Shown here one piece after another: positions 4,883-62,643 of a DNA stretch of 64,000 nt. The translations under genes and the position numbers were made by a program. The notes beneath the pieces are model-generated. The model made no database searches and had not been told where the DNA came from. It was given only the letters and a program-made list of their open reading frames with translations. Source of the DNA: a virus (taxonomy: Duplodnaviria > Caudoviricetes); the IMG/VR virus record IMGVR_UViG_2799112265_000001, positions 67,783-131,782 of that record; one strand, given 5' to 3'. Position 1 is the stretch's first letter. Each line of letters starts with the position of its first letter.

Positions 4883-4940
4883 CCCCGAGGCGGAGAGCAA
4901 CCGCCTCACCTCACCCCGAACCGAAGGAACACCCGCCATG
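4883..4940 (+). promoter_or_regulatory. conserved hairpin leader element, copy 1
   Basis: GAGGCGG-AGAGCAA-CCGCCTC then CACCCCGAACCGAAGGAACACCC..ATG. Confidence 0.75.
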
Positions 4941-5213
4941 CCGAAGCCGGTCAAGACCGTCGCCTACGCCCTCGGCCTCCTGGCCCTCGCCCACCCCGCG
5001 ATCGTTCCGCCCGTTCTCCACGCGCTCGCCTTCGCGGCCGGCCTCGGCGCCGCCGCCGCGCTCTGGGTCCTCGCACACCTCGCGCTCACCCTCACGGTCG
5101 CCGCCGGCGTTCTCCTCGCGCAGTTCCTGCCCGGCCAACTCGGTGCCGCCGCTCGCTGGTTCGGGCGCGCCTGGGATACGTCGATCGACGCGATCCTGCC
5201 CCGTACGATCTGA
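4938..5213 (+). CDS. small membrane protein (possibly Spd-like)
   Basis: MPKPVKTVAYAL..., several hydrophobic segments, AAGGA RBS. Confidence 0.7.
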   Translation: MPKPVKTVAYALGLLALAHPAIVPPVLHALAFAAGLGAAAALWVLAHLALTLTVAAGVLLAQFLPGQLGAAARWFGRAWDTSIDAILPRTI

Positions 5214-5249
5214 CCCTCACCCCCATCACGCCCCGAGAGGAACACCACG

Positions 5250-5360
5250 ATGGCAGCGCTGCGCGGAGGCGACGGCAAGGTCATGGACTTCGTCAACCTG
5301 CTGGGGATCTTCTCCCCCGCGTGGCTCGTGGCCGTGCTGGTGATCCGCCACTGGCACTAG
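5250..5360 (+). CDS. 36-aa hydrophobic peptide
   Basis: GAGAGGAAC RBS; MAALRGGDGKVMDFVNLLGIFSPAWLVAVLVIRHWH. Confidence 0.45.
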   Translation: MAALRGGDGKVMDFVNLLGIFSPAWLVAVLVIRHWH

Positions 5361-5453
5361 TCGAACAGTTCGATTCTTCGCTGAGAACGATTTTGCGCTC
5401 AGCCCCCTCGCGCGGCACCAACACCGCGCGACCGTAAAACGCCCCCTGTGGCA

Positions 5454-5512
5454 CCCCTTCGCGGCGTAGAGCAACCGCCGCAGCCCACCCCGAATCGAAG
5501 GAACACCCCATG
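5454..5512 (+). promoter_or_regulatory. conserved hairpin leader element, copy 2
   Basis: GCGGCG-t-AGAGCAA-c-CGCCGC then CACCCCGAATCGAAGGAACACCCCATG. Confidence 0.75.
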
Positions 5513-6421
5513 AGGCGAAGCCTCGGCATCCCCCTGCGCCAAAATCCGGAGCCCGAACCCGCCTACGGCCTGTACCAGCAGATCCGAGTCGACGCCGAGT
5601 CCCGGAGCCGGGGCTTCCTCGGACCCGACGACCTTCGCCGGTTCGAGGAGGTCGCCTCCCGGCGCGGGGGAGACTGGTGCACCGCTGTCCTCGGCTACAG
5701 CTTCCCCGGCATTCACTACGTCTCCAGCACCGACGGTTGGCACCTGGTGCACGCCGACGAACTCGGCATCGACCCGCCCCTGCCCGCCCCCGTCGTCCAG
5801 GCCCGCGAGGAGACCGCCGCCCGCGATCGGAAGCGGCAGCAGCAGGAGGCCGAGCGCCGCGACCGTGAGCGCCGACAGTGGGACGCCCTCGTAGCCGCCG
5901 CCGGGGTGGAGATCACCGTGCGGGCCAACACCCGGCACACCGGAGTCGGTGGGGCGCTGCGGCACGCCGTGCCCAACGCCGAGCTGGTGTCCGGCCGCTC
6001 ACGCCGCCACCTGCCCGGCCGAGGGCTGTGCGAGACGCCCGGCCGCGCAGACCCGCTGCACCTGAGCGACCCCGTCGACGACCCTGCGAACTGCCGGCGC
6101 TGCCTCACCTACATGGAGCAGGTCCGCGCGCTGGACGCACCCGCCCCGCCCACGGCCGCCGAGCGGCGACTCCTGCAACTGGTCCGCGACGGAGCCGTGT
6201 TCACCTTCCACGTCGCGCGCCGCCCCGCCACCATCCGGGACACCAGCCAGCGCAGCAAGGGCGCCTGGGGACACCTCGGCCGGAAGGTCGACGCCGCCAT
6301 GCTCAAGCTGGAGGCCAAGGGCTGGGTGAGCAAGGAGCAGACGTACAGCGCGACGCAAGACGGTCACCGCGGCGACCGTTGGCGGCTGACCGACACCGGT
6401 ACCGCCGCCCTGGAGGGCTGA
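5510..6421 (+). CDS. hypothetical protein (Cys motif, possible C-terminal winged helix)
   Basis: 303-aa ORF with strong RBS; LC...NCRRC motif. Confidence 0.75.
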   Translation: MRRSLGIPLRQNPEPEPAYGLYQQIRVDAESRSRGFLGPDDLRRFEEVASRRGGDWCTAVLGYSFPGIHYVSSTDGWHLVHADELGIDPPLPAPVVQAREETAARDRKRQQQEAERRDRERRQWDALVAAAGVEITVRANTRHTGVGGALRHAVPNAELVSGRSRRHLPGRGLCETPGRADPLHLSDPVDDPANCRRCLTYMEQVRALDAPAPPTAAERRLLQLVRDGAVFTFHVARRPATIRDTSQRSKGAWGHLGRKVDAAMLKLEAKGWVSKEQTYSATQDGHRGDRWRLTDTGTAALEG

Positions 6422-6426
6422 CCCCG

Positions 6427-7017
6427 ATGGTTGCCCGGATGACCGCAGCCCAGTACAAAGCCCTGCTTGCCAGCCGTCAGGCCGGGAAGGGCGCCCCGGC
6501 GGCCGCGCCGAAGAAGAAGCCGGCCACCAAGAAGCCCGCCGCCGACCCCGGCCCGCCCTCCGTGCCCGAGCCGCCCGCACTGGAGCCCCTCCTCGCGGGC
6601 CTGTCCGGAGTCGGGCGCACCTGGAGCATCCTCATGCCGTACGCGGAGAAGATGCTCGACAGCAACCAGCGGCTGCACTGGCGGCCCGAGCACGCCATCC
6701 GGCAGCAACTCCGCACCGACGCCGTGCAGATGGCACGCGTGCACCGCCTGCCCCGGCTGGAGCGCGCGGCGATCTTCTACGTCCTGCACCCCCGATCCAT
6801 CCGGCGGTCCCGCGACCCTGGGAACTGGGCGCCGACCGCGAAGGCGTACGTCGACGGACTGGTGACCCCGAACCCTCACCAGCCGCGCGAGCGCCACCTC
6901 CTCCCGGACGACGACCACGAGCACCTCCTCGGCCCCTTCCCCGCGATGGGCGCCCCGGTCAGCACCGGCTACGCCCGCATGACCCTGGTCATCACCGAAC
7001 TCATCACACCTGCCTGA
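6427..7017 (+). CDS. RusA-like Holliday junction resolvase
   Basis: RDPGN..TAKAYVDGLV..LLPDDD matches the RusA-family acidic motif pattern. Confidence 0.7.
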   Translation: MVARMTAAQYKALLASRQAGKGAPAAAPKKKPATKKPAADPGPPSVPEPPALEPLLAGLSGVGRTWSILMPYAEKMLDSNQRLHWRPEHAIRQQLRTDAVQMARVHRLPRLERAAIFYVLHPRSIRRSRDPGNWAPTAKAYVDGLVTPNPHQPRERHLLPDDDHEHLLGPFPAMGAPVSTGYARMTLVITELITPA

Positions 7018-7119
7018 CCTGCCCAAACGCGGAAAACGTAACAGGTACAGGCGTTCTGTCGTACTGAAGGGTGAGGGCCTTCGCGGCCCTTCCCGCACTG
7101 CACAAGGAGATGCCCCTCC

Positions 7120-7755
7120 GTGAGCACCACCCCGCCCGTCAAGCTGTCGTCCCTCCAGGTCTACGAGGCCAACGGCACGCCCGTCCCGCACGTCGACCCC
7201 CGCGAGCAGATGCTCAAGGTGGCCGCCGCGGCGTTCACCCGTTCCGGTACCTACATGGACCCCGACGTGGTGGACAGCCACCTGCTGGAGATCGCCGACA
7301 AGGCGGCCTGCTCGCTGCTGCGCGACCGCTGGCGCGACGACTTCCCCGTGGCCGCGTACAGCGAACTCCTCGCCACCATCGCCGCGTTCCGGGAAGTCCT
7401 CGGACTCGACCCGACCCCCACCGGCGTGGAGGTCTTCAACTGGGCGGCCCTGCAGAAGCGACTCGCCATGCAGAAGATCGACGGTCAGCACCAGCAGTAC
7501 CTGGTCCAGTTCCGCAACGGCCCCTTCAAGGGCGCGATCATGCCGTTCCACGGGCCGACCGGCCAGGGGCCGGTCAAGACGCTCACGCTGCCCATCGCCT
7601 GGGGCGACTCGACCGAGCGCGGCCGGGGCACCGCCATCTACGTCCGCAGCGGCGACGCCAACGACCAGCACCTCTGGCCGTACAAGCTGGGCAACCAGGT
7701 CCCCGAGGACGCCCGTCCCCACATCGCCGTCGTCTCGGCCCGGAAGGACGTGTGA
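7120..7755 (+). CDS. hypothetical protein
   Basis: AAGGAG RBS, high GC3. Confidence 0.75.
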   Translation: MSTTPPVKLSSLQVYEANGTPVPHVDPREQMLKVAAAAFTRSGTYMDPDVVDSHLLEIADKAACSLLRDRWRDDFPVAAYSELLATIAAFREVLGLDPTPTGVEVFNWAALQKRLAMQKIDGQHQQYLVQFRNGPFKGAIMPFHGPTGQGPVKTLTLPIAWGDSTERGRGTAIYVRSGDANDQHLWPYKLGNQVPEDARPHIAVVSARKDV

Positions 7756-8153
7756 TGACCACCCCCACCCCCCTCCCGCCTCGCAAGGTCGTCCTCGGGT
7801 CGGCTGTTCGTCTTCTTGAAGGGCCGCCCCTCCAAGACGGCTCCCCTGCGCACGAGTTCTGCCTCATGCGCCTGCCGCAGCAGGACAAGACCTACTTCCC
7901 CATCGACGAAATCAGCGCGACGACGTCCGGACTGGTCAACTACCCCGACCTCCGCGACCTTCTCGACGGCGTCGACCACCTCAGCCACCGTCCCGTAGTT
8001 GAGGGCCCGCAGAACCAGGTCGAATGCCCCGAGTGCCATCGCCGGGAGACCGACACCGACTACTACATATCGCAGCAGCAGCTCGTCATTGACCTGCGGT
8101 GTCACGGCTTCATCGTGGTCAACCCCCCGCGTCCGGCGGAGGGAACCGCCTGA
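7755..8153 (+). CDS. hypothetical protein
   Basis: TGATG coupling; CPEC motif. Confidence 0.65.
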   Translation: MTTPTPLPPRKVVLGSAVRLLEGPPLQDGSPAHEFCLMRLPQQDKTYFPIDEISATTSGLVNYPDLRDLLDGVDHLSHRPVVEGPQNQVECPECHRRETDTDYYISQQQLVIDLRCHGFIVVNPPRPAEGTA

Positions 8154-8392
8154 TGGCCGCCCTGTCCGTCGTGATCCCCTCCCCGGCCGCGGACGCCGCG
8201 CACGACGCTGCGCACGAGACGCTCGCCCGGTTCCGGCACGGCGCCTACTCGGTGCCGTGCGACACCTGCCGCGCCCCGGCCGGGACGCTGTGCCGGTCCC
8301 GGCGTGCGGTGTGCACTCAGCGCCGCGCGGCGTACCGGGAGCGGCAGCAGGCCGTCACGCTGGTTCCGCTCCTCGTCGGGCGTGCCCGATGA
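8153..8392 (+). CDS. small phage zinc-finger protein
   Basis: TGATG coupling; VPCDTCRAPAGTLCR, same motif type as 312-1016. Confidence 0.65.
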   Translation: MAALSVVIPSPAADAAHDAAHETLARFRHGAYSVPCDTCRAPAGTLCRSRRAVCTQRRAAYRERQQAVTLVPLLVGRAR

Positions 8393-8715
8393 GCGCGGTC
8401 GCGGCCGCCATGCCGGCCGACTGCTATGCCTCCCTGTACGACGAGCAGCTCGTCCACATCCTGCTCCAGGGCAATGCGGCCGAGGGGCTCACCATGCAGG
8501 CCGGGTTCCCCCTCTACCCGGCGCCCGCCGTGGGCCGGCCGGTCGAGGTCCGCTGGTCGATTCCTTGCCCGGCGTGCGGGGAGGGCCGCCTGTCTCGACG
8601 GTGGCTTCCCACCGTGTCGGAGCGGCTGATGGTCGGCTCCGACTGCATGCGGCACGTCTTCCTCGTCGTCGTGCCCGACTGGCTACGCCCGGCGTGGCCG
8701 GGGAGCGAGCTGTGA
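8389..8715 (+). CDS. hypothetical protein
   Basis: ATGA coupling; CPAC motif. Confidence 0.55.
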   Translation: MSAVAAAMPADCYASLYDEQLVHILLQGNAAEGLTMQAGFPLYPAPAVGRPVEVRWSIPCPACGEGRLSRRWLPTVSERLMVGSDCMRHVFLVVVPDWLRPAWPGSEL

Positions 8716-9368
8716 GTGCCCTCGCGGTGGAGACCGCGGCCGTCCCCGAGTGGGACAGCCGCCTGGTCGTACGCGCCGCCGGACGCCCCGATCTCCACAT
8801 CGGTGCCGCCGGGACCGTGGCCCCGCGGGTGCCGATGTTCACCGTGGCGCTGGAGTGCCAGCCGGACGTCGACCAGGCGCCCGGCGTCCGGCCGTGGACC
8901 GGCCCGGTCACCGAACGCGCCATCTGCCCGGCCTGCCTGCGCGCGCTGCGCGGCGAACCCGAACCGGTGAAGCCCGCCCGGGTCCCCGCCGGGGTCCTCG
9001 AGGAACTGCCGCAGCCGGAGCCCGACCGGGCCGGCCGACACCTGTGGGCGGTTCCCGCCCCGCAGACCTACGCCGAGGCGCCGCTGCCGGCCGAACACGC
9101 CGGCCGCCGCATCACCTGGTCGGCGTGGAAGCCCACCCCGGTCCTCAGCCGCTACGACCCGGCGTGCGAGTGGTGCGGCGACACCGAGCACGGCGAGATG
9201 ACCAGCGGCCGCCAGGGCAACCCGCTCTCGGCCACCAACCCGCTGCGCAGGTTCCTCGCCTACCGGTGCACCGCCTGCCAGCTGATGACCGCCTACGAGC
9301 AGACCGGCACCGACCTCACGGTCATCGCCCACTTCAAGTCCCATGCCCCGAAGGACTGCAACCGATGA
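8712..9368 (+). CDS. hypothetical Cys-rich protein
   Basis: GTGA coupling; three CxxC pairs. Confidence 0.6.
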   Translation: MSALAVETAAVPEWDSRLVVRAAGRPDLHIGAAGTVAPRVPMFTVALECQPDVDQAPGVRPWTGPVTERAICPACLRALRGEPEPVKPARVPAGVLEELPQPEPDRAGRHLWAVPAPQTYAEAPLPAEHAGRRITWSAWKPTPVLSRYDPACEWCGDTEHGEMTSGRQGNPLSATNPLRRFLAYRCTACQLMTAYEQTGTDLTVIAHFKSHAPKDCNR

Positions 9369-9649
9369 GCACCGCCACCGTCGCACCCCCGTCGACCAGC
9401 GCCGAGCTGGAGCAGCGTCTCGCCCTGATCGCCTGCGGCGAGAACTCCTGGCCCGGTAAGACCCGCGCCTGCGACGACCACCTGAAGAAGTCGTCGACCT
9501 GGCTGCGGATCACCTCCACCGGGGCCGTCGACGCCCTCGCCGCGGCGATATGCGGCTCCGGGCACCGGCACAACCGGTCGTGCCAGCCGTGCACGGAGAA
9601 GGCCGTGCGGTGCGTCAGCGTCTACAACGCGTGGAGGGCGAGCCAGTGA
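9365..9649 (+). CDS. hypothetical Cys/His-rich protein
   Basis: ATGA coupling. Confidence 0.6.
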   Translation: MSTATVAPPSTSAELEQRLALIACGENSWPGKTRACDDHLKKSSTWLRITSTGAVDALAAAICGSGHRHNRSCQPCTEKAVRCVSVYNAWRASQ

Positions 9650-10104
9650 CGACCGCAACCGCGCTCGCGCCGGCCGTCATCTTCGACGTCGACGGCACCC
9701 TCTGCGACGTGTCCGACATCCGCCACCTGACCAAGGGGCCGGGCGGGTTCACCGCGTTCCACGCGGCCAGCATCAACTGCCCGCCCCACCAGGACGTCGT
9801 CGACGCCGCCCGCCAGGCCCGCGCCGAGGGCCTGGCCGTGCTCATCATGACCGGCCGGGACCGCCGCTGGGAGCGGCTGACGTCCATGTGGCTGGCCATG
9901 CACGACGTGCCCTCCGATGGCCTGTGGATGCGCGGCCGGGGTGACTACCGGCCCGACTACGTCATCAAGAGGGAGCTGCTGCGCTCCGCCCGGAACCGCT
10001 ACCAGGTGGTGCGGGCCTGGGACGACAACCCGAACGTGATCCGGCTGTGGGAACAGGAGGGCATCCCCGTCACGGTGGTGCCCGGCTGGGAGGACGAGAC
10101 GTGA
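9646..10104 (+). CDS. HAD-family phosphatase (polynucleotide 3'-phosphatase-like domain)
   Basis: IFDVDGTL, TGR, MRxxGDxRPD..K and DDNP motifs, as in the T4 Pnk phosphatase domain. Confidence 0.85.
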   Translation: MTTATALAPAVIFDVDGTLCDVSDIRHLTKGPGGFTAFHAASINCPPHQDVVDAARQARAEGLAVLIMTGRDRRWERLTSMWLAMHDVPSDGLWMRGRGDYRPDYVIKRELLRSARNRYQVVRAWDDNPNVIRLWEQEGIPVTVVPGWEDET

Positions 10105-11508: not shown

Positions 11509-11591
11509 GATCAATCATTCTCGGCGACAACTTCCAATCTCCGTGAAAGACCGGCACAATGAGGGCTGACGGTCAATCAGGGGGGAAGTTC

Positions 11592-11846
11592 ATGACGAAC
11601 GATGTACCACGGGTCCTACGGCTGACGTTCGAGTTCCACATCCCGCGCGGCCTGCGCACCAACATCCGCAACGACCGGCGGGAGAGCGCCGTAGCGTCGC
11701 TGATCTCGTCGGTGGAAGCACTCGCCCACCGGCTGTTCCCATGGGCGGACAGAATGACGGTCCGGCAGGAATGGTCCTACGCCTGGGTCGACAGGACCGA
11801 GACGATCACGCTGCCGGAGAACGACCTGAACACCCGCAAGCCGTAA
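11592..11846 (+). CDS. hypothetical protein
   Basis: ATG after GGGGAAG; 84 aa. Confidence 0.55.
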   Translation: MTNDVPRVLRLTFEFHIPRGLRTNIRNDRRESAVASLISSVEALAHRLFPWADRMTVRQEWSYAWVDRTETITLPENDLNTRKP

Positions 11847-11876
11847 CACAACTGAACACCTGGCCCACCAGCCAGA

Positions 11877-11934
11877 CCCCGTCGGCGGAGAGCAACCGCC
11901 GGCACCACCGCGAATCGAAGGAACACCCGCGATG
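11877..11934 (+). promoter_or_regulatory. conserved hairpin leader element, copy 3
   Basis: GTCGGCGG-AGAGCAA-CCGCCGGC then CACCGCGAATCGAAGGAACACCCGCGATG. Confidence 0.75.
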
Positions 11935-11962
11935 CCCTCTCGCTCCGGCGAGGTGAGGTGAC

Positions 11963-13933
11963 GTGTTCATACCGGACTCCGATCACCTCACCTCATCCGC
12001 GACCAGCTCCCCGCACGGCCGGACCCGCCGCGCGGCCGCCGCGATCTGCCGCCTGTGCGGGCGCCTGCGCTACGAACTCGCTCCGGCCGCCGCCACGGTC
12101 GGCATGACCTGCCTGGGCTGGCTCCACCACCTCGCCGGCGTGAACACCGCCTCCTACATCGGGTACGGCCTCGGGATCGCCGCCACCAGCGCGCTCACCG
12201 CGGGCGGCCTCAAGTTCAAAAGCGCCCCCGCCGCCTCCATCGGCATGGTGGGCACCGGCAGTCTCATCAACACCACCATCGGCGCGGCCACCGGCCCCTC
12301 CGTGCCCTCCCTGATCGCCTCCGGTGTCGTCACCCTGGCCGCGTACGCCACGTACCTGCCGTGGCTGATCAAGACCCGGCACGACCGCATCAACCTCCAG
12401 ATCAAGGCCGCGAAGACCGGCCCGCTCCCGGACGGCATGGGCGTCAACGTCGGCATGCCCGGCGTCATGGGGGACACCGAGGAGGAGACCGCGCTCCGCC
12501 GCGCCCTTGTCGCCCTCGGAACCCCCGCCGTGGACGTCTCCCGGCTCCGGTTCAGCGACACCGGCTGGCACGCCGTGGTGACGCTCCCGCCCGGCAAGAA
12601 CACCTCGGCCGAGGCCATCAAGGCCCGGCGGCAACAGCTCGAAGCCAACCTCGGCCTGCCGGGCAAGCTGCACCTGGCCGAGGGCGCCCAGGCCAACGAG
12701 CTGCTGGTGTTCATGCAGACTTTCGACCCGCTCGCCGAGACGGTGCCGTGGCCGGGCCCGTCTATCCCCTCGATCGAGCAGCCGCTGCCCATCGGGGTGT
12801 ACCCCGACGGCACCGAGACGTTCCTCGACCTGGTCGCCGGGCACGTCCTCATCGCGGGCGGCACCGACATGGGCAAGTCGACCGTCATCAACTGCATCAT
12901 CGGGAACCTGGTCGCCTGCGCCGACGCCGAGATCCTCGGTATCGACATGAAGCCGGGCGCCCTTGAGCTGGGCCCGTGGCGGCGGAACATGCTCGCCCTG
13001 GCCGACGGCGCCGATGCGGCCCGCCAGGTTCTCACCATGTTCAAGGCGGAGATGCACCGCCGAGGGAAGTACCTGGCGTCTCTGCGCGGCCCGAACGGCG
13101 AGCCCGTCCGGAAGTGGACGTCCGAGCACGGCCCGTACTGGGTCCTCGTCATCGACGAGCTGGCCGAGCTGCTGCGCCAGGCCCCGGACGTGGCCGCCGA
13201 GCTGGTCACCATCAACCAGGTGGCCCGCGCCATGGGCATGCGCGTCATCTCCGCGACCCAGTCGCCCAGCGAGCAGGCGTTCGGCGGGAAGGGTACCGAC
13301 GCCCGCCAGCAGTACAGCACCCGCATCGGGCTGCCCATGTTCGAGCCCGAGCCCATCAACATGGTGTTCGGCCGGGGCGCGTACGGGCAGGGCTGGCGCC
13401 TGGACTGGCTCTACCTCCCCGGCAAGTACATGGTGATGTCCCGCCGGTACACCACGCCCCGCGAGGGCCGCGGCTACTACGTGAGCGACGCCGACATCGT
13501 GGCCGTCTCCACCGAGCACGCCCGGTACGACGAGACGCTGGTCCAGGAAGCGCGGCCGCACCCGGAGCCCGACCCGGAGCCCCCGAGGCCGCCCGGCGGG
13601 GGAGGCCCGCGCGGCGGCCGGCCGACGCTGCGCGCCGTGCCGACGTTCCCGGACGGCTCCCGCATCCCCGACAACCGGCTGCCGCTGTGGCAGGCCCTGG
13701 AGAAGGCCGGACCCGAGGGCCTGACCAAACCCGAGGCGGTCCGGCACGGCATCTGCAACCACCACACGTCCATCGCCCCCTACCTGGCGCAGTGGGCCGC
13801 CCAGGGATGGGTCGAGGAGGACGGCAAGCGGGACCGGGCGATCGTCTACGTCCTCACCGCCGCCCAGCACTCACCCGCCCCCGAGGCGCCCGCCACCGAC
13901 GAGGAGAACCCCGCATGTCCCGCGAGCCTGTGA
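11963..13933 (+). CDS. traB: FtsK/SpoIIIE-family conjugative DNA translocase (TraB-type)
   Basis: N-terminal TM segments, Walker A GGTDMGKS, IDMK, Walker B LVIDE, ATQ, Pro linker and C-terminal wHTH-like domain. Confidence 0.9.
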   Translation: MFIPDSDHLTSSATSSPHGRTRRAAAAICRLCGRLRYELAPAAATVGMTCLGWLHHLAGVNTASYIGYGLGIAATSALTAGGLKFKSAPAASIGMVGTGSLINTTIGAATGPSVPSLIASGVVTLAAYATYLPWLIKTRHDRINLQIKAAKTGPLPDGMGVNVGMPGVMGDTEEETALRRALVALGTPAVDVSRLRFSDTGWHAVVTLPPGKNTSAEAIKARRQQLEANLGLPGKLHLAEGAQANELLVFMQTFDPLAETVPWPGPSIPSIEQPLPIGVYPDGTETFLDLVAGHVLIAGGTDMGKSTVINCIIGNLVACADAEILGIDMKPGALELGPWRRNMLALADGADAARQVLTMFKAEMHRRGKYLASLRGPNGEPVRKWTSEHGPYWVLVIDELAELLRQAPDVAAELVTINQVARAMGMRVISATQSPSEQAFGGKGTDARQQYSTRIGLPMFEPEPINMVFGRGAYGQGWRLDWLYLPGKYMVMSRRYTTPREGRGYYVSDADIVAVSTEHARYDETLVQEARPHPEPDPEPPRPPGGGGPRGGRPTLRAVPTFPDGSRIPDNRLPLWQALEKAGPEGLTKPEAVRHGICNHHTSIAPYLAQWAAQGWVEEDGKRDRAIVYVLTAAQHSPAPEAPATDEENPACPASL

Positions 13934-14226: not shown

Positions 14227-14258
14227 GCCCACAGCACTTAACCGACTCACTGCGTGAA

Positions 14259-15683: not shown

Positions 15684-15692
15684 GGGGAACTC

Positions 15693-37288: not shown

Positions 37289-37498
37289 GTGCAACTCGAC
37301 CGCCAGACCGCCCTCGCGCTGATCGCCGAGGGTAAGGCCGCGCAGGCGAATGGAGACCCCTCCGACGCCTGCCCGTACGACCGACTGGGCAACGCGGAGC
37401 AGCAGTTCGGCAGCCGGTACTGGACGAAGGGCTGGTCCACGGCCCGCTCGGCAGCAGAGGAAGCCCAGACGGCCGCCCCGGCCACAGCAGGACACTAG
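37289..37498 (+). CDS. Rmf (ribosome modulation factor)-like small protein
   Basis: EGKAA..G....CPY...YW.KGW resembles the Rmf signature. Confidence 0.6.
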   Translation: MQLDRQTALALIAEGKAAQANGDPSDACPYDRLGNAEQQFGSRYWTKGWSTARSAAEEAQTAAPATAGH

Positions 37499-37557: not shown

Positions 37558-39510
37558 GTGCCGAGCGCTCCACCCACCCCAGCGTCTCTTCCCGCCAGCC
37601 TGCGAGGCGTCGGCCGCGCGATCTACGCCGTCACCGGCGTCGTCGACGAGGTCAACGACCTCATCCTGCCGGGCGCGTTCACCAAAACCCTCTCCACCCG
37701 GCCCGTCAAAACCGTCTGGCACCACGAGTGGAAGGAGCCGTGCGGCGTCGTCCTCAGCGTTGAGGAGTGGCTGCCCGGCGACAAGCGGTTCGCCGAGATC
37801 CCCGACTGGCCCGCCCAGGCCGGCGCGCTCGTCGCCACCGTCTCCTACAACCTGCGCACCTCCAAGGGCCGCGACACCTACGAGCAGGTCAAGCAGTGGC
37901 ACGAGCGCGGCGAGGCCGCGTTCTCCATCGGCTACCGCGTCCCCGAGACCGCCGCGACGAAGCGAGCCGACGGCGTCCGCGTCATCCACTCCCTGGACCT
38001 GTTCGAGGTCTCCCCGGTCCTGCACGGCGCGCACCCCATGACCCGCTCCCTGGAGATCAAGTCGGCGGCCGGGACGGCTCCGGACATGGAGTACAAGGCC
38101 ACCGCCACCGCGATCACGCTCGCCGCCCCCGAGAGCAGCGACGACATCAAGGTGGCCGGACTCACCGTCAAGGCTGCCGACACCAGCCGGATTCTCCTCA
38201 TCCAGCGCGCCCTCGACCCCGAGGACCCCGCCGCCGGCACGTGGGAGTTCCCGGGCGGGCACCTGGAGGACGGCGAGAACCCCCTCGCGGCCGCGCTCCG
38301 CGAGTGGCAGGAGGAGACCGGCTCCGAACTCCCCGCCGATGCGAGCGTCGTCGGCTCCTGGACGGCCCCGAACGGCAAGTACCGCGGGTTCGTCGTCGTC
38401 GTCCCCAGCGAGCAGAGCGTCCCCATCAACCGGCCCGCCGCCGAGCGGCCCCTCGCCAACCCCGACGACCCCAAGGGCGACAGCCCCGAGGTGACCGCCT
38501 GGTGGCCGCTGCACGCCCTCCCCGACATGCCGCTGCTACGGCCCGCCTGCCGCGACACCCCCTGGGCACTGCTCACCGGGGCGTCGCTGCCGCAGAACCC
38601 GGCCAGCGGGAAGCCCAGCCCGGCCGCGCAGCAGTTCGCCGCCGCGGTGATGGCCGCCTACACCTCCCCGGCCGCCGGAGGCGAGCAAAAGGCCCACGCC
38701 GACGTCGCCGCCGCCCGCGCCACGCCGGCCCGCATCGAGCACAAGTCCGCCCACACGGCAGTCGCCGAGGCCAAGAGCCTCCCCACCCCGCCCACGGAGG
38801 CCCCCGCCATGTCCACCTATCTGCCCGAGTCCATGGAGGCGTTCCAGTCCCGGCTCCGCGGCCTCGTCCGTGACCTGTTCCGTGAGGGCAACGACGCCGC
38901 CTGGCCGTGCATCGAGGGCACCTACCCCAACCAGGTCATCGTCACCGTCCACTACGACGACGGCAGCAGCGAGGACGGCAACGCCTACGCCGTGCCCTAC
39001 ACGGTCGACGCCGACGGCGGGATCACCCTCGACACCCCGCAGCCCGTAGAGCTGGCAACCGTCGTCATCCCCCAGGGCGACGGCGCACAGCGGGAGGCCA
39101 CCGACACCGAGGACATCGACGCCCGCGTGGTGCAGCCCGCCGTCGAGGCCCTCACCGACGCCACCGCCCGGGTCAGCAATTCCGGCGCGGACGCCGGGCA
39201 GCTCGAAGACGTCCGGGCCTCCGTGCGCGAGCTGATCGAGGCGCTGTCCGCGAAGGGTCTCGACGTGGCGGCCGCCAAGGTCGAACGGCCGGCTGCCGCG
39301 CCGTCGGGGAACGCCCTGGACCTGTGGGATGCGGACGCCTTCCCCGAGGACGAGGAGGACGAGGAGGAGCTGCCGAACCCCGACCCCGACGAGGACGACG
39401 GCGGCGACGAGGACGACGAAGACGCCGAGGAGACCGTCCGGATCGACCCCGCCGAGATGAAGGCCCTGATGGAGGCGTTCGAGCTGAGTCGCACCCTGAT
39501 CCCGAGCTGA
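37558..39510 (+). CDS. HK97-type prohead protease fused to Nudix hydrolase and acidic tail
   Basis: DLILPGAF, WHH, FSIGY, LFEVSPV..GA (protease); GGHLEDGENPLAAALREWQEETG (Nudix box). Confidence 0.9.
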   Translation: MPSAPPTPASLPASLRGVGRAIYAVTGVVDEVNDLILPGAFTKTLSTRPVKTVWHHEWKEPCGVVLSVEEWLPGDKRFAEIPDWPAQAGALVATVSYNLRTSKGRDTYEQVKQWHERGEAAFSIGYRVPETAATKRADGVRVIHSLDLFEVSPVLHGAHPMTRSLEIKSAAGTAPDMEYKATATAITLAAPESSDDIKVAGLTVKAADTSRILLIQRALDPEDPAAGTWEFPGGHLEDGENPLAAALREWQEETGSELPADASVVGSWTAPNGKYRGFVVVVPSEQSVPINRPAAERPLANPDDPKGDSPEVTAWWPLHALPDMPLLRPACRDTPWALLTGASLPQNPASGKPSPAAQQFAAAVMAAYTSPAAGGEQKAHADVAAARATPARIEHKSAHTAVAEAKSLPTPPTEAPAMSTYLPESMEAFQSRLRGLVRDLFREGNDAAWPCIEGTYPNQVIVTVHYDDGSSEDGNAYAVPYTVDADGGITLDTPQPVELATVVIPQGDGAQREATDTEDIDARVVQPAVEALTDATARVSNSGADAGQLEDVRASVRELIEALSAKGLDVAAAKVERPAAAPSGNALDLWDADAFPEDEEDEEELPNPDPDEDDGGDEDDEDAEETVRIDPAEMKALMEAFELSRTLIPS

Positions 39511-55442: not shown

Positions 55443-58400
55443 GTGGCGTCCTTCAATCTCGACGAGCGAGAGCGATCGAAGCAGCTCGCGGGCTTCTTCA
55501 AGCAGATTGAGGACCGGCTTGGCGCCCTTGAGCGCCCCAACCAGCTCAACGGCGCCTCCATCGAGGGCGGCACCCTCGACATCTACGACGAAGAGGGCGT
55601 GCTCAAGGGCTCGGTCGGCGTCCAGCCGGACGGTGGCCTGGCCGTAGTCCCCGACCCGGTCAACACCGCGCCTCCGCCCACCCCGACGCCGCCCACGGTC
55701 GAGACGGAGCTGGGCGGTCTGCGGATCGGCTGGGACGGGGCGTGGGCCGACGCCGTGGCGGCCCCCACCGACTTCGCCTTGGTCCAGGTCCACGTCGGCA
55801 CCAGCGAGACGTTCGTGCCGTCCGTGGCCACCCAGGTCGCCACGATCACCGCGCCGCTCGGCGGGACCATCACCGCCCACGTCACCGGCTATGACCCGGT
55901 GTGGGTGTGCCTGGTCGGGCAGAACACGGCCGCGCTCACCGGTGCCCCCTCGGCGCGCGTGCAGGGGCAGGCCCGGCAGGCGGTCGGTCAGGACCTGATC
56001 GACGGGATCGTGACCGAGGTCAAGCTGGCCGAGGCTGCCGTCACCGAGGCGAAGGTCGCCACGGCGGCGATCTCCACCGAGAAAATCCGGCAGGGCGCGG
56101 TCAACGAGCTGCTGCTCGCCAACGACGCGGTCACGGCGGCGAAGATCGCCGCCGGAGCGGTGCAGTCGACGGCCCTGGCGGACGGGGCGGTCCTCGCGGC
56201 GAAGCTGGCCGCGAACGCGGTCACGCAGGGAAAGCTCGCCACCGGGGCTGTCACCGAACTCGCGCTTGCCGACTCCGCGGTAACGGCCGCGAAGGTCGCC
56301 GTCAGCGCGATCGACGGGACGAAGATCCAGGACGCGGCGGTCACGGCCGCGAAGCTCGGCGACGCGGCGGTCACGTCCACGAAGTTGGCCGGCGGCGCGG
56401 TCAACGCTCTCGCCTTGGCGGACTCCGCGGTGACAGCCGCGAAGGTCGCCGTCAGCGCGATCGACGGGACGAAGATCCAGGACGCGGCGGTCACGGCCGC
56501 CAAGCTGGGCGCGGCCGCCGTGACGGCCGGCAAGCTGGCCGCGCAGTCGGTGACCCCGGCTGCGCTCACCGGGGCGCTCGCCGACACCGCGTCCCAGCGG
56601 TGGGTCGACACCATGGGCGACCCCACCGCCTGGTCCGTGCTCCAGCTCGGCACGGGCGCCTCCTGGCAGCACCTGACGGGGGTCCCGGACGCCGGTTCCG
56701 GTCAGACCGTCGGCCAGGCCGCCGGCTTCGTCCGCCTGCGCGGCAACGTCCTCATGGCGTACGACCCCGACGTGCTGTACCGGGTGGCGGTCCGCATCCG
56801 CGCCACCGTGCAGCCGGCCACCCCCGACGTGTTCTACCTCGGGCTCCTCGGGGTGGGCGCGGACGGTCTCACGCTCGTCAACCGGGACGGACAGAACTCC
56901 GCTAACAGCCACTACTACGCGGCGGCCTCCGCCCGGTCGCTGCCATCGGCGAGCGGCTGGGTCACCGCCATCGGCTACGTCAAGGGTCGCGCCCTGGCCG
57001 GGGCGTCGGGCTCGGCCGGCCCGAACCCTGACCCGCGCGCTCCGGGCCTCGTCCACGCGAACGTCCGCTACGTCACGCCGTACGTCTGGTGCAACTACAA
57101 CAACCAGGCGAGCGCGGCCGGGACGATGCAGGTCGACGTCGTCTCGATCGAGGCCCTGAAGACGGGTGTGGTCGACTCCACCAACCTGGTCACGGGCAGC
57201 GTCACCGCCGCAGCGATAGCCACGGACGCGGTGGTCGCGGGCAAGATCGCCGCCGACGCCATCACCGCGCGAGAGCTGGCCGCGGACTCGGTCACCGCGG
57301 GCAAGATCGCCGCCGGTTCGGTCGTCACCGCCAAGCTGGCGGCCGCGGCCGTCACTGCCAACGAGCTGGCCGCGAACTCGGTCACCGCGACTGCCATAGC
57401 GGCCGGGTCCGTGCAGGCGGGCGCCCTGGCCGCCGACGCCGTGGCGGCCGGGAAGGTGGCCGCCGACGCGATCACCGCGCGGGAGCTGGCCGCCAACTCG
57501 GTCACCGCGGCCGAGCTGACGGCCGGATCGGTTATCGCCGGAAAGATCGCCGCCGGCGCGGTGACAGCGGCGGAGATCGCCGCGAACACCATCACGGCCG
57601 GACAGCTCGCGGCGAACTCGGTCACGGCGGCCGCCATAGCGGCCGGGTCCGTGCAGGCGGGCGCCCTAGCCGCCGACGCGGTCGCGGCCGGGAAGATCGC
57701 TGCTGACGCGATCACGGCGCGGGAGCTGGCTGCGAACTCGGTCACGGCGTCCGAGCTGTCGGCGAACTCGGTCACCGCACAGGCCGTCGCGGCGGGCTCG
57801 ATCTCGGCGGACAAGCTGACGATCGTCGGCGGCTCCAACGTCCTCCCGGACCCCTCCTTCGAGGGGGCAGGCGGCGCCGCCATCGCGGCCAAGGCCACCT
57901 ACCTCTCGATCGACAAGACCTTCGGTAACGGCACCCCGGCCAGCCTGAAGTTGGTGGCCACCGCCGGGGCCGCAACGACCCGCAACGCCGAACTGATGCT
58001 CCTGCCCACCACCGCAGGCGATCAGGTGTACCTGGCGGTCGACTATTACCCGTCGACCGACTGGGCCGGGGCCGAGATCAACGTGCACGCCCAGTGGGAG
58101 AAGGCCGACGGCACGGTCCTGTCCGCGGGGAAGGTGTCGACCACCAGCCCCGCCAAGGGCGCGTGGGCACGGTTCTCCGGCACGGTCACCGCCCCGGCCG
58201 GCGCCGTGCTGGCCCGCATCCGGGTGGAGTCCGGGAACGCGACGGCGGGCTCGGTGTGGTGGGACAACGCGGCCGTACGCCCGGTGACCCCCGGCGTGCA
58301 GATCGCGGACGGTGCGATCACCACGCCGAAGATGGTCGCCGGGTCCATCCAGGGCGACCGGATCGCGGTCAACACCCTGGCGGCGGACCGGATCGTGTCC

Positions 58401-60986
58401 GGGTCGATCACGACCTCCCAGCTCAACGTCACCACCGCGGCGTCCGTCCTGCAGAAGTTCTACGACGTGGGGTCGGACGCCTCGAAGTGGCGGGTGTCGG
58501 GGTCGAGCACCGCTACCGCGACCGTCCCGTCGAACCTCAGCTCGGTGCAGGTCGCGGACGCGCAGTCCGGCAGTTCGGTGATGCGCGCGGTCGGGTCGCT
58601 CACCGCGGCCTGGCGGCCGGACGTGCTGATCCCGTTCGACCCGAACGTTCTCTACCGGGTGACCGCCGTCGTCCGGCAGACCGTCGCGGGCAGCGACACC
58701 ACCCAGCAGCGGCTGTACACCGGCGTCGCGGGCATCGCGGCCGACGGGGCCACGCTGGTCAACACCACGGGAGCCGCGTCGGCCGCGACCCAGCACTACA
58801 TCGCCGCCTCGTCGCAGAACCTCACGGCGGGCGCCGGGTGGGTGCGCGTCACCGGCTATCTCAAGGGGTGGGCGGCGGCCGGCGTGAACGGCTCCAGCGC
58901 GCCGTGCCCGACCCCGACCGCACCAGGCCAGGTCCACGCCAACACCCGGTTCCTCAGCCCGCTGCTCTACCTGAACTACAGCGGCGGCACCGGCACGGCC
59001 GAGGTCGGGTCGGTCACGATCGAGGTGGTCGAGACCGGCGCTGTGCAGTCGGTGAACATCGCCGACGGTGCAGTCACCACGCCGAAGCTGGTCGCGGGAG
59101 CGGTCACCACCGACAAGCTGGTGGCGAGCGCGGTCACGGCCGAGAAGATCGCTTCGCTGGCCATCACCACGGACAAGCTGGCGGCGCTGTCGATCACGGC
59201 CGACAAGCTGGCCGTGAACTCGGTGACGGCGTCCGCCATCGCGGCCGGGAGCATCGACTCCACGCACATCAAGGCCGGGTCGATCGCCGCCGACCGGCTC
59301 TCCCTGGCCGTCGACGGCAACGTGATCGCCGACCCGTCCTTCGAGGGCGCCACCTCGGACCAGCGCGTCGCCGGACAGAGCAACTGGTCCCTGATCGCGC
59401 CGGGCAACGGCACCGCCCGCGCGCTCCAGGTCAACGCAGTCAACGGCTCGGCCACATCCCGGGGCCTGACTCTGGCGACGCTGCCCGCCGTGCCCGGCAC
59501 CAAGGTGTGGCTGGCCATGGACTACCTGGCCTCCACCGACTGGAACGGCACCTCCGCGTGGATATACGCGCAGTGGCTCGACACCTCCGGCACGATCCTC
59601 GCCAACAGCGAGATCAGCACCACGGGCGGGGGCGCCACCACCGTGCTGGGCACCTGGACGACCCTCTCCGGCGTGCCCGACCTCCCGGCCCCGGTGGGCA
59701 CCGCGCAGCTCCGGATTGCGGTCGCGTCCAACAACGCCAGCGCAGGGACCGTGGCGTGGGACAACGTCAGCGCCCGCATCGTCATGGCGTCCGGCGTGGC
59801 CGGAGCGCGCACGGAGATCAGCCCGCGCGGCCTCCAGCTGTACGACGACAACGGGGACGAGGCGGTCGCCCTGGTCACCGGCCGCCCGAACTACCTGACC
59901 CTGTCGGCGGACGGGGTGGCGACGGCGACGATCGACCAGACCGGCGCAGCCGGCTTCCAGCGCCTGGCCGTCGCCGAGAACCTGACCGTGGGCGGCACCG
60001 ACCTGACCGACGTGCTGGCCGCGCTGCCCCGTGGCATCCAGGCCATCGACTACCAGGCCCTGTCGAAGACGGCGTCCGGCACGGAGATGGGCTTCGTCGA
60101 GCTGGCCTGCGACATCGACCCGACCCGCATGTACAAGTTCGTGTTCCAGGGCCGGTGTGACCCGTCGGCCGCGGGCGGGGAGCTGCGGCTGTTCCTCCGC
60201 ACCGGCGGGGCGAGCGGTGCCGCACCGACCATCTCCTCCACCCAGCTCTACATGGCCGTGCACGCCATGCCGGTGGCGACCTCGTTCACCGCGCGGATGG
60301 ACTTCGTCCGCAGCGGGCTGGCACTCGGGGGCGGCACTCACCGCTTCCTGCTGTCCTTCGCCAACGCCCTGGGCCCATCCGGGCAGACCTGCGCCCTGTA
60401 CGGCAACGACTACTCGATCGGCGAGTTCTGGATCGAGGACATCGGCCCGTACATCCCGGAGACGGGCGGCTACAACGACGGCGGCGGCACGAGCGCCCCC
60501 ACCCCGAAGCAGTACACGAAGTACTACAACGCGTCCTGGTCGGGCTCGTACGTCAACCGGGGATCGTACGACTCGTACCACGGCAACCAGTGCTTCCAGG
60601 GCTACTACAGCAGCACCAACGGCATGCAGGCGTCCCTGATCGGGTTCCCGTCAGCGCTGGGCTCCGACCTGGCCGGCGCCACGATCCAGCAGGCTCAGGT
60701 CTACCTGTACTTCGACCACTGGTACTCAAACGCGGGCGGCAAGGCCGTGATCAAGGCGCACAGCTTCACGTCCCGCCCGTCGTCATTCTCATGCGACCCC
60801 GAGGCGAAGACGATCTCGTGGGCCCGTAACGAGGGCAAGTGGGTCGACATCACCAGCGTGTTCGACAGCACGAAGTGGCGCGGCATCGCGCTCGACCCGA
60901 ACGCTTCCGGCACCACCTACTACGGCCGGGCTCGCGGCTACGGCCAGTCCAACCCGCCCCGCCTCAAGATCACCTACACGAAGTGA
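55443..60986 (+). CDS. tail fibre / receptor-binding protein
   Basis: 1847 aa; three blocks of ~10-aa VTAAKLAA-type repeats between duplicated beta-sandwich domains (DPSFEG x2, [YF]DPxVLYRV x2). Confidence 0.85.
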   Translation: MASFNLDERERSKQLAGFFKQIEDRLGALERPNQLNGASIEGGTLDIYDEEGVLKGSVGVQPDGGLAVVPDPVNTAPPPTPTPPTVETELGGLRIGWDGAWADAVAAPTDFALVQVHVGTSETFVPSVATQVATITAPLGGTITAHVTGYDPVWVCLVGQNTAALTGAPSARVQGQARQAVGQDLIDGIVTEVKLAEAAVTEAKVATAAISTEKIRQGAVNELLLANDAVTAAKIAAGAVQSTALADGAVLAAKLAANAVTQGKLATGAVTELALADSAVTAAKVAVSAIDGTKIQDAAVTAAKLGDAAVTSTKLAGGAVNALALADSAVTAAKVAVSAIDGTKIQDAAVTAAKLGAAAVTAGKLAAQSVTPAALTGALADTASQRWVDTMGDPTAWSVLQLGTGASWQHLTGVPDAGSGQTVGQAAGFVRLRGNVLMAYDPDVLYRVAVRIRATVQPATPDVFYLGLLGVGADGLTLVNRDGQNSANSHYYAAASARSLPSASGWVTAIGYVKGRALAGASGSAGPNPDPRAPGLVHANVRYVTPYVWCNYNNQASAAGTMQVDVVSIEALKTGVVDSTNLVTGSVTAAAIATDAVVAGKIAADAITARELAADSVTAGKIAAGSVVTAKLAAAAVTANELAANSVTATAIAAGSVQAGALAADAVAAGKVAADAITARELAANSVTAAELTAGSVIAGKIAAGAVTAAEIAANTITAGQLAANSVTAAAIAAGSVQAGALAADAVAAGKIAADAITARELAANSVTASELSANSVTAQAVAAGSISADKLTIVGGSNVLPDPSFEGAGGAAIAAKATYLSIDKTFGNGTPASLKLVATAGAATTRNAELMLLPTTAGDQVYLAVDYYPSTDWAGAEINVHAQWEKADGTVLSAGKVSTTSPAKGAWARFSGTVTAPAGAVLARIRVESGNATAGSVWWDNAAVRPVTPGVQIADGAITTPKMVAGSIQGDRIAVNTLAADRIVSGSITTSQLNVTTAASVLQKFYDVGSDASKWRVSGSSTATATVPSNLSSVQVADAQSGSSVMRAVGSLTAAWRPDVLIPFDPNVLYRVTAVVRQTVAGSDTTQQRLYTGVAGIAADGATLVNTTGAASAATQHYIAASSQNLTAGAGWVRVTGYLKGWAAAGVNGSSAPCPTPTAPGQVHANTRFLSPLLYLNYSGGTGTAEVGSVTIEVVETGAVQSVNIADGAVTTPKLVAGAVTTDKLVASAVTAEKIASLAITTDKLAALSITADKLAVNSVTASAIAAGSIDSTHIKAGSIAADRLSLAVDGNVIADPSFEGATSDQRVAGQSNWSLIAPGNGTARALQVNAVNGSATSRGLTLATLPAVPGTKVWLAMDYLASTDWNGTSAWIYAQWLDTSGTILANSEISTTGGGATTVLGTWTTLSGVPDLPAPVGTAQLRIAVASNNASAGTVAWDNVSARIVMASGVAGARTEISPRGLQLYDDNGDEAVALVTGRPNYLTLSADGVATATIDQTGAAGFQRLAVAENLTVGGTDLTDVLAALPRGIQAIDYQALSKTASGTEMGFVELACDIDPTRMYKFVFQGRCDPSAAGGELRLFLRTGGASGAAPTISSTQLYMAVHAMPVATSFTARMDFVRSGLALGGGTHRFLLSFANALGPSGQTCALYGNDYSIGEFWIEDIGPYIPETGGYNDGGGTSAPTPKQYTKYYNASWSGSYVNRGSYDSYHGNQCFQGYYSSTNGMQASLIGFPSALGSDLAGATIQQAQVYLYFDHWYSNAGGKAVIKAHSFTSRPSSFSCDPEAKTISWARNEGKWVDITSVFDSTKWRGIALDPNASGTTYYGRARGYGQSNPPRLKITYTK

Positions 60987-60994
60987 GGACCGCT

Positions 60995-61387
60995 GTGCCC
61001 ACTGCACCGTTGATGCCCCTCGCCCTGATGGCCGCGCTCGCCAACGAGAAGACGCTGATCCCCCGCGTCCGCATGGCCATCGCCGTCGTCGCCCAGGAGG
61101 TGTTCCTGGAGGACGCCAGCACCCCCGGCAATCCCCTGCGATTCAGCCTGGCCCGGTCGGTGCTGTCCCCGACCGACCTCCAGGCGGCCGCGATGATGGT
61201 CGGTCTCGTGGCATCCCCCCTGTTCCAGGCCGCGGCCATCACCGCCAACTCCAGCGACCCGGCGGTGATGGCGGCCGCCGTGACCGACGAGCAGCTCCTC
61301 AACGCTGTCCGGGTCGGATGGAGCGCCGTCGCAGGGGTGTCCCCCGCCCAGGCGGCCGGGGCAAAGGAGACGCCCATCGAGACGTAA
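60995..61387 (+). CDS. hypothetical protein (possible fibre chaperone)
   Basis: GAGGA RBS, directly after fibre gene. Confidence 0.65.
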   Translation: MPTAPLMPLALMAALANEKTLIPRVRMAIAVVAQEVFLEDASTPGNPLRFSLARSVLSPTDLQAAAMMVGLVASPLFQAAAITANSSDPAVMAAAVTDEQLLNAVRVGWSAVAGVSPAQAAGAKETPIET

Positions 61388-61489
61388 GCCTCCACGGTGA
61401 TGCATCTTCCGGGCTGCGGGGAGCCGCGAGCCGTACAAGGCTCCGGCTCCCGCGCACCCGACTGACCACCACGACCGAGGAGGCACCCC

Positions 61490-61918
61490 GTGGAGTGGCT
61501 CACCTCGCTGGGGCCCCTTCTCACCTCCGTCTTCGGCGCCACCAGTGCGCTGGGCGGCGCGTGGATGGTGCACCGGGCGACGAACCGCAAGACCCAGGTG
61601 GACGAGCGCAAGGCCCAGGTGGAGGAGAAGGCGAGCGAGGCCGCCACCTTTGTCCAGTCCGTGCAGACCGTCACCACCGGCTTCACCCAGCTCCTGGAGC
61701 AGCAGCGCGAGACGAACGCCAGAACGCTGGAGCGCGTCACCACGCTGGAGAACCGCGTGGAGCGCCTGGAGGAGGAACAGCGGATGTGGAGACGCTGGAA
61801 GGTGGCAGCCGTCGACTACATCCACCAGCTTCGCGCCCTCCTCGACAAGCTCCACGGCATCCCACCTGTGCCGCCGCAGGAGATCGCCGACGACCTGGGC
61901 GAGCCCGCCGCCCACTGA
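61490..61918 (+). CDS. membrane-anchored coiled-coil protein, lysis-cassette type
   Basis: GAGGAGG RBS; N-terminal TM then coiled coil. Confidence 0.7.
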   Translation: MEWLTSLGPLLTSVFGATSALGGAWMVHRATNRKTQVDERKAQVEEKASEAATFVQSVQTVTTGFTQLLEQQRETNARTLERVTTLENRVERLEEEQRMWRRWKVAAVDYIHQLRALLDKLHGIPPVPPQEIADDLGEPAAH

Positions 61919-61985
61919 GTGAGGGGACGCAAGGGCCCTCGGCCGCGCACAGTCGGCCCGTCATCTCCGTATGAAGGGCTGGACC

Positions 61986-62303
61986 ATGAATCTGTTGTAC
62001 GCACTGACGGCCGGCGCCAAGGTCGGACTGCTCCTGCCACTGCTCACTGCCGTGGTGCAGCAGCCCGGCTGGTCGGCGCGGGTGAAGAAGTGGGTCGCGG
62101 TCGCGGCCGCGGGCGTTGCCGGCGTCGTCACCGTGGCGGCCGAGGGTGGCTGGGCGCAGTTCCACTACGCGCACCTGACCGTGGTGACCCTTGCGGGTGT
62201 GCTGGCGGCCTCCCAGACGAGCTACGTGCTGCTGTGGAAGCCGATCAAGCTCGCCCCCTGGATTGAGGCCCTCACCGCCAGAAACAAGCCTCAGCAGGGC
62301 TGA
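61986..62303 (+). CDS. holin-like protein
   Basis: Three TM segments; LPLLTAVVQQPGWS. Confidence 0.7.
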   Translation: MNLLYALTAGAKVGLLLPLLTAVVQQPGWSARVKKWVAVAAAGVAGVVTVAAEGGWAQFHYAHLTVVTLAGVLAASQTSYVLLWKPIKLAPWIEALTARNKPQQG

Positions 62304-62584
62304 TATCCCTCTCGGTGCCCATCCGCGCTGTGTACGGCGGGTACCATCTCCCAACGAGGCGGCCGTACCGCTGCCACGACAAGCGTTGAGAGATCCCCAA
62401 GCCCTCTATGGCTCCGTTCACCTCAAGCGGGTGTTCCTTTCGGCCAGGCAGGTGGGGTGCGGGAATCGGTCTCGAGACCACCGGGTGCGTGCAGAGCACT
62501 CGGGGCCGGGGAGCGGTTGCTCCTGCGATGATCCGGCACACGCCTGTCGCTGGCTGGTACGGCCGTCTCGCTGTCTGTCCGAGC

Positions 62585-62643
62585 CCCCTTCGCGCGTCCG
62601 AGAGCAGCGGGCCGCACACCCCGAACTGGAGGAACACCCCGTG
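62585..62643 (+). promoter_or_regulatory. conserved hairpin leader element, copy 4
   Basis: GTCCG-AGAGCAG-CGGGC then CACCCCGAACTGGAGGAACACCCCGTG. Confidence 0.65.

Follow-up and report, generated by a model that had tools for sequence, protein, structure and literature searches.

A covarying, fixed-loop RNA hairpin leader upstream of non-virion genes in a Streptomyces phage-plasmid lineage

The stretch of DNA analysed here (the window, 64,000 nt) comprises bases 67,783-131,782, the right half, of the 131,782-bp virus record IMGVR_UViG_2799112265_000001, which has a GC content of ~70% and direct terminal repeats at its ends. The window carries four copies of a 55-60-nt unit, referred to here as the leader, which consists of a hairpin, a G-poor tract containing a Shine-Dalgarno (SD) sequence, and a start codon. 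The stem is 7-9 bp long and free in sequence, the loop AGAGCA(A) is closed by G-C pairs, and the tract after the stem reads CC.CGAA..GAAGGAACACCC, with the SD core AGGA within it. As detailed below, the leader is real and strongly supported, a cis-acting RNA that belongs to a Streptomyces phage-plasmid lineage and had not been catalogued. A first-pass annotation, made from the letters of the window, had placed hairpins at 4883, 5454, 11877 and 62585, and each was confirmed at its place with the following components.

4887-4893/4901-4907, loop 4894-4900 (+): hairpin of copy 1, GAGGCGG / AGAGCAA / CCGCCTC
4908-4940 (+): G-poor linker, SD tract and start codon of copy 1 (GAAGGAACACCC at 4923-4934, ATG at 4938-4940)
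5461-5466/5476-5481, loop 5468-5474 (+): hairpin of copy 2, GCGGCG(T) / AGAGCAA / (C)CGCCGC
5482-5512 (+): linker, SD tract (5497-5508) and ATG (5510-5512) of copy 2
11881-11888/11896-11903, loop 11889-11895 (+): hairpin of copy 3, GTCGGCGG / AGAGCAA / CCGCCGGC, with one U.G pair
11904-11934 (+): linker, SD tract (11917-11928) and ATG (11932-11934) of copy 3
62596-62600/62608-62612, loop 62601-62607 (+): hairpin of copy 4, GTCCG / AGAGCAG (a variant loop) / CGGGC, with one U.G pair
62613-62643 (+): linker, SD tract (GGAGGAACACCC at 62628-62639) and GTG (62641-62643) of copy 4

The hairpin of copy 1 was present in both the minimum free energy and the centroid folds, and copy 2 is mismatched at the loop-closing position (T5467.C5475). 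A covariance model built from 16 copies recovered all 18 full copies in the 131.8-kb genome (E<=4e-9), each in the same direction as the open reading frame (ORF) that follows. The four window copies were matched at 4880-4940 (76.2 bits, E 2e-22), 5454-5512 (70.5 bits), 11875-11934 (76 bits) and 62587-62643 (50.4 bits). The CCCC prefix included in the original description of the element turned out not to be conserved in the wider set of copies.

We then scanned the whole genome for hairpins with the loop AGAGC[AG][AG] and found 19, of which 18 were joined to a ribosome-binding site (RBS) tract and a start codon at a fixed distance, the remaining one being a hairpin alone. The family of four copies first described is thus present, as part of a larger set of 18 full copies and one hairpin-only copy. 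These numbers are far above chance. In 16 of its 19 occurrences in the genome, AGAGCAA was enclosed by a stem of 5 bp or more, and it is the commonest 7-nt hairpin loop there; the 104 other permutations of the 7-mer gave at most 2 such hairpins (mean 0.07). Similarly, the 12-mer GAAGGAACACCC occurred 5 times in the window with at most one mismatch, against 0.20 expected, a number reached in 0 of 100 shuffles. The hairpin-only copy (L016:7037-7096, minus strand; genome 7064-7094) has a 14-bp stem and an AGAGCAA loop, lies behind a class I box (see below), and is followed by GGTGTAACAAAT..CGTAC, with an RBS tract only ~100 nt further on. It is conserved in Streptomyces phage Gilgamesh near 79,69x.

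Analysis of the stems showed that pairing, and not sequence, has been conserved. Across the 9-bp helix of the 19 genome hairpins, 88.3% of alignment cells were paired and 48 cells had changed on both sides. None of 500 shuffles reached this level, and sliding the partner strand by 1-3 columns reduced pairing to 30-54%. The 123 covariance-model matches were then reduced to 78 distinct rows from 7 genomes (alignment A6). Here 94.0% of stem cells were paired and 174 carried a change in both partners, a level that none of 500 shuffles attained, and pairing in the slid controls was 28-50%. The alignment had been fitted to the structure of the model itself, and since copies within a genome are paralogues and the genomes are relatives, the counts do not represent independent events. 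RNAalifold alone returned the identical single helix from the 78-copy alignment, with compensatory changes in 7 of 7 pairs, an unpaired tract and no second helix. The pairing is therefore under selection, and the covariation first noted between four copies holds in a wider homologue set of 78 copies from seven genomes.

The loop behaves quite differently from the stem. Among the 78 copies, 35 loops were AGAGCAA, 34 were AGAGCA and 9 were variants; the core GAGC was kept in all 78, while every stem position varied. That the loop is held constant while the stem drifts speaks for recognition of a specific sequence. The mismatches also distinguish the two strands: the inner seven pairs contained 30 G.U cells but only 5 A.C cells, an excess indicating that the sense strand of the gene is the strand that folds. 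The covariation and this sense-strand bias point, as proposed earlier, to a structured RNA with an invariant loop that would be read by something. That proposal had allowed for RNA or single-stranded DNA, and of the two RNA is retained, since both the link with gene direction and the ratio of 30 to 5 make single-stranded DNA less likely. The linker between hairpin and SD sequence is uniform within a genome and varies from one genome to another: it reads CCCCGAA here, Gilgamesh has CCACGAA, and (G)TCCCGAA or GCCCGAA occurs elsewhere. The copies may either evolve in concert or follow a genome-specific partner.

Searching Streptomyces phages and plasmids with the covariance model, as the first-pass annotation had suggested, gave 17 matches in Gilgamesh (129 kb, host S. 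lividans), the sole named relative found in the phage collection, and 18 and 16 matches in two complete circular Streptomyces plasmids, CP108533.1 and NZ_CP107934.1 (129,653 and 125,380 bp). Five IMG/VR records brought in by a pattern scan contained 11, 15, 12, 19 and 9 matches, and a second pattern scan added seven virus records. The leader was also found on several whole contigs of 125-128 kb (loci L057, L059, L064 and L065), and relatives are integrated in chromosomes as well. In each of four Streptomyces genomes (7-10 Mb), all 11-15 matches lay in one contig or in one ~117-kb prophage region, and a fifth genome gave a single match; for these host genomes 150 of ~10,000 first-look candidates were scored per genome. 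Within this search, the leader is restricted to this phage lineage. Sequence identity to Gilgamesh was ~78% across a block that includes the FtsK-like translocase, and the replicon is a temperate Gilgamesh-like Streptomyces phage or phage-plasmid and not a conjugative plasmid. The presence of the leader on circular plasmids and on whole contigs of 125-128 kb indicates that the lineage also lives as a phage-plasmid. Rfam 15 gave no match at gathering scores across the whole genome and none at E<=10 for window positions 4800-5560, and a literature search found no description of the leader hairpin, in agreement with the first-pass annotation, which knew of no described family.

The position of the hairpin relative to the gene is constrained. 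Measured from the eighth pair of the stem, the start codon lay 21-31 nt away (median 25; 77 complete copies), and GAAGGAACACCC was 0-6 nt upstream of ATG or GTG in 18 copies. Only AAGGA within the tract can pair with the 3' end of 16S rRNA. In Gilgamesh, 15 of the 17 starts implied by the covariance model were the starts annotated by the curators; the exceptions were an unannotated upstream ORF (uORF) and a methylase gene annotated to begin within the leader. No covariance-model match was found in the virion module of the window. The four window copies precede the following coding sequences.

4938-5213 (+): downstream gene 1, a 91-aa hydrophobic protein with no Pfam or PHROG match
5510-6421 (+): downstream gene 2, 303 aa, no Pfam or PHROG match
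11932-11961 (+): uORF after copy 3, 9 codons, MPSRSGEVR*
11963-13933 (+): FtsK/SpoIIIE (TraB-like) gene, 656 aa, Pfam PF01580 (E 9.6e-11), phrog_1358 (E 3e-28)
62641-63459 (+): downstream gene 4, 272 aa, no Pfam or PHROG match

Copy 3 had been described as leading traB directly; instead, it drives the 9-codon uORF ahead of the FtsK/SpoIIIE gene. The uORF stops 1 nt short of the GTG that opens the FtsK-like gene, within GAGGTGAGGTGACGTG (window 11932-11965), and uORFs of 17-18 codons that start with MPSR and have the same end context occupy the orthologous position in Gilgamesh and in two IMG/VR records. Conservation of the uORF in three other genomes, with a stop abutting the GTG, suggests termination-reinitiation coupling, through which the FtsK-like gene is apparently reached. 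Among all 18 downstream products, Pfam and PHROGs matched only a DNA methylase, FtsK/SpoIIIE, DUF2958 and phrog_1366; the rest had no Pfam or PHROG family. The regulon of four plasmid genes envisaged earlier gives way to a set of ~18 genes in a Gilgamesh-like phage or phage-plasmid.

The sequences upstream of the hairpin fell into at least three context types: a class I box, the arrangement CGTAGC-N17-CGTT, and a palindromic operator with TATGGT or TAGAGT. A -10-like box ending in TACTGT or TACTAT was found 6-30 nt before the hairpin in ~34 of 78 copies, a count made with a regular expression allowing one mismatch and including at least one doubtful match. In loci L017 and L018 the box TTTCCGnnTGGTGTACTGTT stands 6 nt before many hairpins (e.g., L017:14479-14500, minus strand), and relatives carry it as TTGCTGTACTGTT or TGGTGTACTATT. 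Other copies had no recognisable promoter and followed an upstream gene. This variety indicates that the hairpin is tied to the beginning of the coding unit and does not depend on the type of promoter. Moreover, one orthologous set from five genomes, and the copy at 38857 of this genome (G000), contain a second small hairpin between the box and the leader hairpin, indicating that the leader hairpin is kept even where it cannot be 5'-terminal. A scan with the sigma-70 consensus found no promoter at the four window copies, though such a consensus is uninformative for Streptomyces. Just before copy 1, at window positions 4829-4854, two perfectly matched 10-nt arms, CCGACAACAA-N6-TTGTTGTCGG, form an inverted repeat, and a -10-like TATGGT comes after it. 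Gilgamesh and two other records have this operator-like palindrome ahead of their orthologous copies, and it is probably part of a repressor-controlled promoter of the divergent region.

Taken together, the fixed spacing to the start codon, the fused and over-conserved RBS tract, and the strand asymmetry of the mismatches argue for a leader that acts at the RNA level, at or near translation initiation. We favour a sense-strand RNA leader that influences translation initiation and/or the stability of the mRNA through a single trans-acting reader, and assign this reading a probability of roughly 0.55. The leader would be transcribed together with its gene, and a stem of any sequence would fold. 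The loop would then be bound by a single trans-acting factor, a phage or host protein, sitting at the 5' edge of the RBS and setting, upward or downward, translation initiation and/or mRNA lifetime jointly for ~18 non-virion genes or operons. The hairpin may also keep the tract free from upstream pairing. A sharper and more tentative version, which we consider possible without leaning on it, is that the hairpin serves as the operator of a lineage-specific RNA-binding protein from an undescribed family, encoded by these ~125-130-kb Streptomyces phage-plasmids, which would use the one loop sequence to switch translation of ~18 non-virion mRNAs on or off.

Several points weigh against a leader with a dedicated reader. 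The gene list comprised 112 ORFs called from the longest start, with three ORFs crossing locus borders and all ORFs of the virion module outside the Pfam scan; among the 86 non-virion products scanned, the only RNA-binding family was a MazF/PemK-like toxin, and no candidate reader protein emerged from the scans. The toxin is missing from four of five related elements (Gilgamesh and three IMG/VR records), and this argues against a role as a conserved reader or cutter. No ANTAR domain was found in the phage at E<=1, and a phage ANTAR protein was rejected as the reader. The 78-copy statistics are tempered by the fitting of the alignment to the model's structure and by the relatedness of its rows, and lineage restriction was judged from 150 of ~10,000 first-look candidates per host genome. 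The sequencing runs on record included none of RNA, one DNA run being a possible source of the virus record, and the position of the hairpin relative to +1 was deduced from the -10-like boxes. Finally, a passive role as stabiliser or insulator is a serious rival.

Two other potential partners were considered during the search for a reader. Pairing of the loop with ribosomal RNA was rejected: neither AGAGCAA nor GAGAGCA occurred on either strand of a host-type rrn operon (16S-5S, 6031 nt), 16S rRNA had no stretch of at least 6 nt complementary to the loop core, and nothing in the operon mimicked the hairpin. No arginine-rich protein of the N type was seen in the Pfam scans of the 86 products, such peptides being short and poorly modelled. 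The MazF/PemK-like toxin ORF (L016:17206-17520, plus strand; Pfam E 4e-6) is 70% identical to its counterpart in plasmid CP108533.1 and probably belongs to a maintenance module. An RMF-like ORF lies in the virion module at window positions 37316-37450 (+), with a score of 23.1 bits, below the Pfam cut-off of 27.9; gp51 of Gilgamesh is annotated as RMF.

In the passive alternative, the hairpin would guard the 5' end of the transcript from 5'-end-dependent RNases and shield an optimised RBS, with no specific reader. Bacterial mRNAs are known to be stabilised by 5'-terminal stem-loops, and in the ~34 copies that follow a -10-like box the hairpin would begin at or near +1. The G-poor tract, left unpaired by RNAalifold, and the empty reader scans also fit this explanation. 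A purely physical hairpin, however, needs no fixed loop, and GAGC was kept in 78 of 78 copies and AGAGCA(A) in 69 of 78 despite the drift of the stem. The copies preceded by another hairpin, and the several that follow an upstream gene with no recognisable promoter, also stand against it. We consider the passive explanation unlikely, though it fares best among the rivals. Operators such as those of T4 RegA and gp32 and of the MS2 coat protein control translation, and hairpins of the ompA type stabilise mRNA from its 5' terminus. The leader resembles both as a cis RNA element 5' of the initiation region that would set translation or stability. Unlike them, it is present in many copies with one fixed loop, and its hairpin lies 14-20 nt upstream of the SD sequence and covers neither the SD sequence nor the AUG.

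The first-pass annotation had named, as the first of two options beside a translational-control site, a boxB/nut-like antitermination site, at which a phage protein bound to the nascent hairpin would make RNA polymerase resistant to terminators. In phage lambda, nut comprises boxA 5' of the boxB pentaloop hairpin and is read by N; one or two such sites per genome lie between an early promoter and terminators. Like nut, the leader combines an invariant loop with an unconstrained stem in a small hairpin of early leaders, presumably recognised as RNA. Its location close behind many promoters, and the division of the phage genes into many short transcription units, with gaps that contain terminator-like hairpins, would suit antitermination. 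The leader differs in having loops of 6-7 nt instead of a pentaloop, and no box 5' of the hairpin, the columns there being unconserved across the 78 copies. It further differs in the number of its sites (17-19 per genome), all placed 21-31 nt ahead of a start codon, and in the joining of hairpin and conserved RBS tract, seen in 18 of the 19 genome hairpins; copy 3 stands directly before a short, coupled uORF. The spacing and the RBS fusion favour an effect on translation or stability, and antitermination appears improbable, somewhat more so than passive protection.

Less probable still is that host ANTAR regulators have been hijacked to bind the AGAGCA loop. ANTAR-target RNAs consist of two stem-loops joined by a 2-25-nt linker, have hexaloops with A1 and G4, and are often RBS-adjacent in actinobacteria (PMC8164766). 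The leader fits this description in part: 34 of 78 loops are the hexaloop AGAGCA, with A1 and G4, the hairpin lies next to the RBS, and translation control in actinobacteria would be shared. Host ANTAR proteins are available, as one lysogen genome contained six ANTAR-domain ORFs above the Pfam cut-off, none of them within the prophage region. The leader nevertheless has a single conserved hairpin in place of the dual stem-loops, and 35 of 78 loops are heptaloops. Rfam remained empty for window positions 4800-5560 even at E<=10, and the motif, confined to phage, was not found in host genes outside prophages among the 150 of ~10,000 candidates scored per genome. A site acting at the level of DNA would be either a regulatory element (operator or promoter) recognised as double-stranded DNA or a boundary at which gene cassettes are exchanged by recombination. 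Such a site would suit intergenic regulatory DNA near promoters and repeated units of ~60 bp that could support recombination, but is very improbable given arms that covary with no conserved sequence, a mismatch ratio (30 G.U to 5 A.C) by which one strand matters, an asymmetric conserved centre and a variable distance from the -10-like box to the loop.

Of the phenomena described so far, the nearest to the leader are the start-associated sequences (SAS) and extended SAS (ESAS) of Cluster K mycobacteriophages (PMC3203893) and Cluster EF Microbacterium phages (PMC7302621). The leader seems to resemble the SAS of actinobacteriophages more than lambda nut. Shared features are an asymmetric motif of 12-13 nt, conserved beyond need, that occupies the RBS position within a few nt of the start codon; 10-19 copies per genome in gene orientation at non-structural genes only (18 here, 17 in Gilgamesh); conservation beyond the positions that can pair with 16S rRNA; and a linked upstream element. 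The SAS consensus sequences given there, GGGATAGGAGCCC and GGGAAAGGACCCC, are unrelated to GAAGGAACACCC of the leader. For the ESAS repeats of Cluster K, the authors report a conserved sequence for which RNA pairing was not supported (PMC3203893). In contrast to these ESAS, the arms of the leader are free in sequence and covary, so that pairing is the conserved feature. Homology with the GTAGAG-centred EF ESAS of Microbacterium phage AnnaSerena was rejected, as that element is promoter-like and has no AGAGCA hairpin. In its logic, copy number and gene class, the leader belongs with the SAS phenomenon, to which it adds the covarying hairpin with a fixed loop.

SAS of actinobacteriophages have been without a mechanism since 2011, and the leader adds a tractable, covarying hairpin in a culturable pair, Gilgamesh and S. 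lividans. If the hairpin is an operator, this would be the first structure-based and mechanistically tractable case of SAS; if one factor reads the loop, the two would make a new RNA-protein pair, and the genes behind the leader would be a phage-plasmid regulon controlled after transcription. A passive hairpin would still show a phage standardising its 5' untranslated regions across promoter classes. The compact leader could also be a possible insulated expression part for high-GC actinomycetes.

Some further features of the window and the genome were recorded. Window positions 62424-62455 (-) contain an RBS tract, AAAGGAACACCC, followed by TTG and with no hairpin (covariance-model E 0.036), which points leftwards out of the intergenic region of copy 4. 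At the left end of the genome, ARAGORN predicted an 85-nt tRNA-Pro(CGG) (L016:52-136, plus strand), a candidate attachment-site remnant. Locus L017 encodes a DpdA protein (8701-9582, minus strand; E 4e-78) and a PAPS-reductase-domain protein (12107-13195, minus strand), which together look like a 7-deazaguanine DNA-modification set. The same locus also carries a phage-encoded protein of the undecaprenyl-diphosphate-synthase family (L017:1516-2229, plus strand; Prenyltransf, E 8e-47).

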